Below, piece by piece: positions 19,536 through 20,255 of a stretch of DNA of 64,000 nt (position 1 is its first letter; every line of letters begins with the position of its first letter). Made by a program: the position numbers and the translations under genes. The stretch lies in NCBI RefSeq assembly GCF_044324785.1, contig NZ_CP172127.1. One strand, 5' to 3'. This DNA is from Escherichia coli (lineage in GTDB: Bacteria; Pseudomonadota; Gammaproteobacteria; Enterobacterales; Enterobacteriaceae). Under the pieces are notes generated by a model. The model was not told the origin of the DNA. It saw nothing but the letters and a program-made list of their open reading frames with translations, and did not search any database.

Positions 19536-19799
19536 ATGAGTAATAAAACACTTGTTAAAAAATCAAATAACTGTGTCGATGCATACGCCGACGCGTTTGG
19601 CTACTCTTCGTTTGGTGACGGCTCTCAGCGCCTAGGTTCAATTTCTTTTTTTCATAATGTAACTGAATGGCCTGTTGATGAAAGTGACGATGTTGAGAAC
19701 ATAAAGTACAACATTGCAACCATTAGAATGCCCGAAGAATTGATGCTTAAATTGGCTGACTTCATTCGCGACCAGCATGACAAAGCTAAAACAAACTAA
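19536..19799 (+). CDS. Hypothetical acidic cytoplasmic protein (first gene of rex-position cassette)
   Basis: 87-aa ORF with RBS; AT-rich; immediately downstream of cI on the same strand. Confidence 0.5.
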   Translation: MSNKTLVKKSNNCVDAYADAFGYSSFGDGSQRLGSISFFHNVTEWPVDESDDVENIKYNIATIRMPEELMLKLADFIRDQHDKAKTN

Positions 19800-19811
19800 T
19801 CGTAATTAATT

Positions 19812-20255
19812 ATGAAACACGATTATTACGAAGCTCCAAACCTAAATGATAAAATTGCAAAGGCGGCAGAATCATTTTGTTTGCACTCCAGTGCGTCTTC
19901 CCAGCTAGCAGGTATATCTGGAAAAAGATGGGACATGCTACAATCAAGTGGTAGCAGTGGGTCTGGGAGTGATAACATGCCTGAAAAAGTTGCAAAACTG
20001 GAGTCCGATGTTGCTCATATCAAACGAGACGTTGATGAACTTAAAACAGACGTTAAAGCTATCGACAAAAATATGATAACTATTCTTGCACGTCTGGACT
20101 CTATAAAAGAATCCTTAACAAACAAGCCATCAAGTGATGCTGTCGATAGAAAGATTTCAGACGCAAAGCTTGCGGTATTGCTTGGTGTTCCAGCAATCAT
20201 CGCTGCAGGAACAGGACTTTATAAGCTATCAATGTACTTTTTCTTTAGTGCTTAA
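19812..20255 (+). CDS. Hypothetical tail-anchored membrane protein with coiled coil (second gene of rex-position cassette)
   Basis: 147 aa; Gly/Ser linker, predicted coiled coil (KVAKLESDVAHIKRDVDELKTDVKAIDKNM), single C-terminal TM (LAVLLGVPAIIAAGTGLYKLSMYFFF). Confidence 0.5.
   Translation: MKHDYYEAPNLNDKIAKAAESFCLHSSASSQLAGISGKRWDMLQSSGSSGSGSDNMPEKVAKLESDVAHIKRDVDELKTDVKAIDKNMITILARLDSIKESLTNKPSSDAVDRKISDAKLAVLLGVPAIIAAGTGLYKLSMYFFFSA

Follow-up and report, generated by a model that had tools for sequence, protein, structure and literature searches.

A modular two-gene cassette linked to prophage repressor genes as a candidate exclusion module of Enterobacterales

Introduction

Genes of temperate phages that act in lysogeny are found in the interval downstream of the repressor gene, and in lambda the interval between cI and OL holds rexA and rexB. 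A lambda-like prophage, integrated at a tRNA-Arg site in the 64,000-nucleotide stretch of Escherichia coli DNA analysed here (contig NZ_CP172127.1 of assembly GCF_044324785.1; hereafter the window), carries two other genes in this position, termed orfA and orfB (19536–20255). What does such a pair do in the lysogen? A sequence-only reading of the locus had proposed a candidate superinfection-exclusion or abortive-infection module on the basis of the rexAB-like position and of the architecture of the two proteins. The two genes are indeed open reading frames (ORFs) that directly follow cI on the same, plus strand, and the positional argument turns out to be stronger than that reading had it. 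Related pairs follow divergent cI-type repressor genes in dozens of prophages and also hold the sieA slot after mnt. Three further properties go beyond it, namely that the family is large and modular, that orfB has a conserved internal start, and that both proteins belong to PHROG families.

The cassette is therefore treated here as a good candidate for a new variant of the repressor-linked exclusion modules, a reasonable hypothesis backed by comparative evidence. As to its action, we tentatively propose that orfA and orfB form a lysogen-expressed membrane module directed against superinfecting phage, in which a head of the OrfB protein and its partner would act as a sensor or latch and the OrfB core as a membrane-damaging effector. 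Other explanations are weighed below at the points where the evidence bears on them.

Linkage of the cassette to repressor genes

OrfB is a member of a large Enterobacterales prophage family that comprises at least 158 protein clusters from more than 12 genera. The named sources all belong to the Enterobacterales and include Escherichia, Salmonella, Klebsiella, Citrobacter, Enterobacter, Cronobacter, Pantoea, Erwinia, Serratia and Rahnella, among others. A scan of IMG/VR with the OrfB alignment returned 80 loci, 73 of which were analysed. A cI-type repressor gene is the immediate upstream neighbour of the pair in 50 of these 73 loci, usually with a divergent cro-like gene beyond it, and lies one ORF call further off in at least five more; a Mnt/Arc-type repressor gene takes the immediate upstream place in four. 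A small partner gene and an orfB-like gene are thus found at, or adjoining, the 3' end of a repressor gene in at least 59 of the 73 loci. In 32 related loci a cro-like gene is found at position –3. Because the repressors in many linked loci are only 25–33% identical to the cI protein of the window, and because identical cassettes accompany two different immunity specificities, the linkage is one of position and not of mere inheritance. Assortment of the cassette is independent of the immunity type.

Signals of a common transcription unit were counted in 36 unique related loci. The median gap is 64.5 nt between the repressor and partner genes and 3 nt between the partner gene and orfB. A terminator-like hairpin is found 3' of orfB in all 36 loci, as against 28% of random 250-nt windows, and in none of the 36 between the repressor and partner genes. 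An operon-like unit composed of repressor, partner, orfB and terminator therefore recurs across divergent temperate phages with two unrelated repressor types. The window has the same layout: the cassette lies downstream of cI, in the position of rexA–rexB in lambda, with no intervening terminator. The strong intrinsic terminator that had been read from the sequence at 20333–20359 consists of a stem at 20330–20353 and a T-rich tail, and the OL/pL operators that had been placed beyond it correspond to a cluster of half-sites at 20455–20549.

Low ratios of nonsynonymous to synonymous substitution rates (dN/dS) relative to family members (0.05–0.16 for orfA and 0.16–0.24 for orfB), matches of OrfA to phrog_4231 (E = 7e-54) and of OrfB to phrog_3556 (E = 1.5e-58), and the presence of the entire cassette in 197 of 5,426 complete E. 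coli genomes (3.6%) establish orfA and orfB as real genes, and both are under purifying selection. They are AT-rich, as noticed from the sequence, with GC contents of 39.0% (orfA) and 40.1% (orfB) compared with 46.5% in cI and 49.3% over the window. A low GC content and a terminator of their own would also suit the genes of an ordinary moron, which would serve lysogenic conversion in a role that has nothing to do with phages, for instance in tolerance of envelope stress or in colonisation of the host. Prophages of this type do carry such morons, for example the Iss/Bor lipoprotein gene annotated in the relative of this prophage in E. coli SE11. Such a role has only a slim chance of being the right one, because the fast swapping of heads, partners and transmembrane (TM) classes described below, together with a ratio of nonsynonymous to synonymous differences (pN/pS) of 0.43–0.66 in the OrfB head, is more typical of conflict systems than of housekeeping cargo.

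Architecture of OrfA and OrfB

OrfA was expected from its sequence to be an acidic cytoplasmic protein of 87 residues. Its isoelectric point is 4.96, and it has no hydrophobic segment, the best 19-residue Kyte-Doolittle mean being 0.55. AlphaFold2 models it as a beta-sheet with a C-terminal helix at a predicted local distance difference test (pLDDT) score of 80, and structure comparison of this model gives no informative structural relative. A profile search of 1.84 billion representative proteins finds eight clusters only and no distant annotated relative. Homology between the OrfA family and the Rahnella-type partner was considered and dropped, as hhalign gave no similarity between them.

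OrfB has the parts that the sequence-only reading had assigned to it, with the linker at residues 44–55, the coiled coil at residues 56–103 and the single C-terminal TM segment at residues 118–136 of its 147 residues. The long members of the family are built on one plan, in which a variable head of 20–80 residues is followed by a Gly-rich linker, a coiled coil, a Pro hinge (KKPS), one TM helix and a short tail. The start of the core is almost invariant in these long proteins (M-L-E-A-R-V-A-K-L-E-S-D-V-x-Y-I-R-R-D). The a/d register of the OrfB heptads is fully hydrophobic (a = VVVVMLL, d = MLILIII), and coiled-coil insertions and deletions in the family alignment are exact heptads. A sequence search of OrfB against chains of the Protein Data Bank finds generic coiled coils only. 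The head is coding, its frame being open in every gene and its sequence conserved within classes; its pN/pS of 0.43–0.66 shows that it evolves faster than the core (dN/dS 0.16–0.24) and than orfA.

The TM helix falls into at least four unrelated sequence classes in the family and is nearly invariant inside the main class. Lysine and arginine are commoner on its N-terminal side in 39 of 45 unique family proteins, and a second TM segment is found in none of the 45. Because of this excess of positive charge before the TM segment and the lack of a second one, OrfB is predicted to be tail-anchored with its bulk in the cytoplasm. Eleven residues follow the TM segment in OrfB, and 0–17 do so in most family members.

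The mnt/sieA slot of P22-like phages

Salmonella phage UPF_BP1, a P22-like phage, is the only member of the sequenced-phage collection with the cassette. Its OrfA is 95% identical to that of the window, and its orfA–orfB pair follows mnt, the annotated start of orfA overlapping the end of mnt, and sits between the ant/arc/tailspike block and gene 16. The most divergent relatives of orfA that were found have the same place after mnt in other P22-like prophages, of Serratia and others, where the accompanying coiled-coil/TM protein is a different one, of 207–225 residues (phrog_5820), and where mnt, orfA and the partner gene have overlapping starts and stops. P22 itself has mnt–orf59a–sieA in this interval, with the orientation unchanged. 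Experiments have proven that SieA excludes superinfecting phage, and sieA lies between genes 16 and 9 of P22-like prophages (PMC10883804). This slot after mnt is taken by cassette relatives in loci L001, L009, L059 and L091–L094. Because of these post-mnt relatives and the layout of P22, the cassette is seen to occupy the slot of rexAB in lambda-like phages as well as that of sieA in P22-like phages. Some P22-like prophages carry further small cargo genes beyond the pair, which encode a 101-residue signal-peptide protein, a YobH-family protein and a 124-residue protein with a TM segment and a coiled coil (L009 5957–6262; L092 4960–5169; L026 4464–4838).

The replacement of sieA by the cassette in the same slot raises the possibility of constitutive SieA-like exclusion at genome entry, in which a membrane-anchored OrfB/OrfA complex at the cytoplasmic face of the inner membrane would block or capture the ejection proteins or DNA of the incoming phage, or a host entry factor, and the cell would survive. 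The conservation of the TM helix, which far exceeds the need of a plain anchor and could reflect binding to a host membrane protein, fits this explanation. So does the position of some relatives next to tape-measure or tail genes, by which the HK97 gp15 exclusion moron is also located. However, OrfB is predicted to be almost entirely cytoplasmic with 0–17 residues beyond the TM segment in most members, so that periplasmic contact with the injection machinery is unlikely, and the cytoplasmic heads, being highly variable and matched to the partner, are more suggestive of sensors. SieA is a prophage-expressed inner-membrane protein, as OrfB would be, but it is a single protein of 162–164 residues with three predicted TM helices and an FxRYPxEAxxFNK motif (PMC10883804), whereas OrfB has one TM helix and always comes with a partner gene. 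The motif is missing from the OrfA and OrfB sequences on inspection, and neither is similar to SieA. Exclusion at entry is thus an unlikely, though not negligible, account of the cassette.

Exchange of partners, heads and TM classes

The partner proteins fall into five or more unrelated families (OrfA/phrog_4231, phrog_5893, phrog_12039, phrog_4293 and singletons), and all of these lack annotation. Pfam finds nothing significant in 12 partner proteins, the best match being DUF6941 at 5e-3 in one member. Partner class and OrfB head class go together, with an adjusted mutual information of 0.71, whereas the values are 0.15 for partner class and TM class and 0.09 for head class and TM class. For example, OrfA-type partners and the MKHDYYEAPNL head occur on three TM classes, namely those of the window, of UPF_BP1 and of L059. 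Between the window and UPF_BP1, the DNA match covers orfA and only the first ~57 codons of orfB; the two OrfB proteins share the head. Heads are therefore exchanged together with partners, and TM classes are exchanged separately. Because partner class tracks head class and not TM class, the simplest reading is that the partner binds to the OrfB head. The suggestion that a membrane protein acts here with a small partner agrees both with this co-variation and with the median gap of 3 nt between the two genes.

The phrog_4293 partners (~119–132 residues; L055 3547–3906 and L081 3577–3975) have two Cys pairs, CLLCGS ... CRNCG, which suggest a zinc ribbon, and form the sole partner class with a recognisable motif.

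An internal start in orfB

A start codon stands at the core start in 49 of 49 long orfB genes. It is GTG in four near-identical genes (the L020–L023 variant) and ATG elsewhere; L032 and L090 are counted as ATG, since this codon can be seen in both sequences and the automatic calls of GTG (L032) and TTG (L090) are look-back artefacts. The Gly codons of the linker give GGAGG-like motifs 4–12 nt upstream of this codon. Since the codon usage of linker Gly residues does not differ clearly from that in the remainder of orfB (GGA 31% versus 25%), the motif was assessed by synonymous codon resampling. A Shine-Dalgarno match of at least 5 nt is present in 30 of 36 unique upstream 21-mers, compared with 15.5 +/- 2.8 after resampling, and a 6-nt match in 17 of 36, compared with 6.9 +/- 2.3; none of 2,000 resamples reaches the observed 5-nt or 6-nt count. 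The short form is common in public gene calls, as exemplified by P0011, a protein of 92 residues that runs from Met56 to the C-terminus with one substitution. Forms that are naturally headless also exist in the family (L088, and the gene that precedes orfB in L032). Because an internal start and a Shine-Dalgarno motif are kept beyond the need of the peptide, it is likely that two OrfB isoforms are made, one headed and the other a bare core. In L032, a headless coiled-coil/TM protein of 99 residues (1022–1321) is encoded directly upstream of a headed one of 136 residues (1351–1761).

The lambda holin gene provides a familiar parallel. It has two in-frame starts two codons apart, from which S105 and S107 are made, and the longer product has a regulatory N-terminus. 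Both cases would involve an in-frame dual start and membrane proteins that co-assemble, which is putative for OrfB. However, the starts are 25–83 codons apart in the orfB family, and the extension is a putative partner-binding head.

The same observations bear on a toxin-antitoxin addiction module, in which the OrfB core would be a membrane toxin neutralised by OrfA, thereby stabilising the prophage or lysogeny. A gene for a small acidic protein followed by one for a membrane protein, with coupled translation (a gap of 12 nt in the window, and 3 nt as the family median), and a partner that matches the head it would neutralise are in keeping with such a module. A headless short isoform would escape neutralisation, though; the partners equal or exceed typical antitoxins in size and resemble no known antitoxin family, and an integrated prophage with a repressor has no obvious need for addiction. 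We consider an addiction module very unlikely.

Comparison with known systems

The sequence-only reading had recognised no known family in either protein. This holds for RexA and RexB, to which there is no similarity, and for PADLOC 2.0, Pfam and NCBIfam, which give no significant match for OrfA, OrfB or ten further family members; it does not hold for PHROG, in which each of the two proteins belongs to a family, phrog_4231 and phrog_3556 respectively, without an assigned function. PADLOC has no match to OrfA and only coiled-coil noise for OrfB at E >= 0.004 (PbeC, LmuB and JetC). Likewise, a search of PADLOC-DB 2.0, which covers post-2023 systems incompletely, with twelve proteins of the main partner and OrfB classes yields coiled-coil noise only. 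No publication on the cassette genes or their accessions was found in the full-text and supplement literature, in which a prior description by Brenes and Laub 2025 (Cell Host Microbe) is possible.

The cassette resembles rexA–rexB in that two genes, one for a soluble and the other for a membrane protein, follow cI directly on its own strand and end at a terminator before OL/pL. RexB has four TM helices, RexA has ~280 residues, and lambda makes extra RexB from an internal promoter, which has a possible counterpart in the control of dosage by a putative headless OrfB made from the internal start. However, the PADLOC, PHROG, Pfam and NCBIfam comparisons give no sequence similarity to RexA or RexB. 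OrfB has one C-terminal TM helix in place of four, OrfA has 87 residues in place of ~280, and the coiled coil and swappable head are features of OrfB. Because RexB has four TM helices and SieA three, OrfB cannot be assigned to either family. The mycobacteriophages Sbash (gp30/gp31) and Butters (gp30/gp31) reportedly encode, next to the repressor, a cytoplasmic protein paired with a membrane protein, both of which are produced in the lysogen and act against heterotypic phages. The cassette shares with them such a pair next to the repressor, but the proteins are unrelated, the membrane partners in the mycobacteriophages are multi-pass and the hosts are Actinobacteria.

The likeness of the OrfB core to the XhlA-type proteins (PBSX XhlA and SPP1 gp24.1; PF10779) is architectural only, in that it shares with them a length of ~90 residues, an N-terminal coiled coil and a single C-terminal TM segment. 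Weak reciprocal PHROG matches link OrfB and its relatives to phrog_1193 and phrog_937 (1e-4 to 8e-6) and SPP1 gp24.1 to phrog_6136 (6e-3), and one short OrfB relative is named 'Hemolysin XhlA' in UniRef. The Pfam XhlA model matches OrfB with an i-Evalue of 0.11, which is not significant, and hhalign of the OrfB family alignment against SPP1 gp24.1 gives a probability of 2.8%. XhlA genes lie in the lysis cassette by the holin and endolysin genes, whereas orfB lies in the repressor operon and adds a head, a linker and a partner gene. For these reasons, the E-value, the probability and the different genomic context, OrfB is not filed as an XhlA family member. PBSX lysis requires the membrane protein XhlA along with the holin XhlB and the endolysin (PMC5589764). 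By analogy, the OrfB core may work like an XhlA-type membrane protein, and this requirement of XhlA for lysis makes a membrane-damaging core plausible.

The XhlA-like architecture of the core, given that XhlA acts with a holin (PMC5589764), is also compatible with a regulator of the prophage's own cycle, which would set lysis timing through the holin in the manner of an antiholin or XhlA, or would sequester a regulator of induction. The dual start recalls holin/antiholin pairs, and the linkage between cassette and lysogeny switch is tight. Yet the cassette is part of the repressor operon, a long way from the lysis genes, which are ~10 kb away in the SE11 relative, and assorts independently of the immunity type. 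It is present in very different phages (lambda-like, P22-like and those in which the pair adjoins tail genes), and the comparison with the XhlA-type profile gave the low probability stated above. A role in the prophage's own cycle is accordingly quite unlikely.

Proposed mechanism

According to our tentative proposal of a membrane module against superinfecting phage, orfA and orfB would be co-transcribed with cI in the lysogen up to the terminator at 20330–20362. OrfB would be a tail-anchored inner-membrane protein with its bulk in the cytoplasm and would probably exist in two forms, one of 147 residues with a head on a flexible linker and one of 92 residues that starts from Met56 and is a bare core. 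The coiled coil would allow the long and short forms to co-assemble, and OrfA, being small and soluble, would dock on the head of the long form. The pair of head and partner would most likely be a cytoplasmic sensor or latch that is perturbed by an infecting phage. Such a perturbation would let the conserved core oligomerise, thereby damaging or depolarising the inner membrane and aborting the infection. A broader claim is that the cassette represents a previously unrecognised, widespread class of exclusion systems in the repressor operons of Enterobacterales prophages, unrelated to RexAB and SieA, with the isoform core as common membrane effector or scaffold and swappable heads and partners giving specificity. 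This is possible but doubtful.

Several points weigh against the proposal. A minority of the family adjoins tail or tape-measure genes, or sits at the end of a prophage, instead of standing next to a repressor gene (L027–L030, L055, L080, L081 and L088). The topology of OrfB is derived solely from the positive-inside rule. An AlphaFold2 model of the fused OrfA-(GGGGS)5-OrfB, built from a paired alignment of seven rows, has a pLDDT of 43.5 and no readable interface. The enrichment of Shine-Dalgarno motifs comes from mutually related sequences in which Gly-Gly codons favour GGAGG anyway, and the motif of the window is a modest one, GGGAG only. Finally, the absence of matches to defence models fits a non-defence role as well as novelty.

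The prophage and its immunity region

The prophage of the window is 95–98% identical to the DLP12-site prophage of E. coli SE11 and colinear with it except for a few replaced blocks. The cI protein matches phrog_4 ('transcriptional repressor') at 8.6e-73, and its C-terminal part matches CI-like and UmuD-like PHROGs. ACAAC/GTTGT half-sites, the same as in OR, number seven in the OL/pL cluster against ~2 per kb across the window, and beyond this cluster kil, gam, bet and exo follow on the plus strand. The features of the region are listed in Table 1.

Table 1 Features of the cassette and the surrounding immunity region in the window
Feature	Position	Strand	Description
cro-like helix-turn-helix (HTH) gene	18429–18659	-	Divergent from cI; an HTH-domain gene stands at the corresponding place in the SE11 relative
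OR-type operator region	18661–18752	.	ACAAC/GTTGT half-sites, including a palindrome at 18698–18722
cI-type repressor gene	18764–19453	+	N-terminal HTH region and C-terminal S24/UmuD-like region
cI–orfA spacer	19454–19535	+	No plus-strand terminator and no consensus promoter
orfA	19536–19799	+	Acidic soluble partner of 87 residues; directly after cI
orfB, long form	19812–20255	+	147 residues; 12-nt gap after orfA
orfB variable head (residues 1–43) and Ser/Gly linker (44–55)	19812–19976	+	Head type goes with orfA-type partners
Internal start signal	19965–19979	+	Shine-Dalgarno-like GGGAG at 19965–19969, 7-nt spacer, ATG of Met56 at 19977–19979
orfB core, putative short isoform	19977–20255	+	92 residues; coiled coil, Pro hinge and TM helix
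orfB coiled coil, residues 56–103	19977–20120	+	Seven heptads; relatives show exact 7-residue insertions and deletions
orfB TM segment, residues 118–136	20163–20219	+	AKLAVLLGVPAIIAAGTGL; Kyte-Doolittle 1.80
Intrinsic terminator after orfB	20330–20362	+	9-bp stem with 6 G-C pairs (20330–20353), then a T-rich tail
OL/pL-type operator cluster	20455–20549	.	Seven ACAAC/GTTGT half-sites, including ACAAC-TTTT-GTTGT at 20486–20499

Neither cro nor the DNA-binding N-terminal part of cI (18360–19002) has a match in the otherwise 97–98% identical SE11 prophage, so that the window prophage differs from that of SE11 in immunity specificity but has the same downstream cassette. The IMG/VR loci L011 and L012 repeat this pattern of one cassette with different immunity specificities. 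Other blocks replaced relative to SE11 lie at 6634–9739, 11738–13617 and 23005–23365 of the window; at the last of these, SE11 has a PAPS-reductase-family gene and a methyltransferase gene, both of which are missing from the window. The SE11 relative has no N-like antiterminator annotated between the pL region and kil (window 20550–20805; kil 20805–21011), and Rfam finds no RNA element within the cassette or in 20550–20805. The Rfam matches at gathering threshold are a tRNA (25510–25583, minus strand) at the integrase end of the prophage, which is tRNA-Arg in the SE11 annotation, the small RNA STnc480 (46984–47050, minus strand) and the antisense RNA AgrB (60072–60159, minus strand) in the flanking chromosome.

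Significance

To our knowledge, the mechanism of RexAB is still not understood after decades. The OrfB family provides a second system in a RexAB-type position that is widespread and much smaller. Its modules are swapped in nature, which points to the recognising part and to the acting part of the system. The conserved internal start would add a new case in which two isoforms are made from one small phage gene. If the cassette does exclude phages, it would account for some of the lysogen resistance that now lacks an explanation, would bear on the choice of therapeutic phages, and would offer a compact model for the restraint of a membrane effector.

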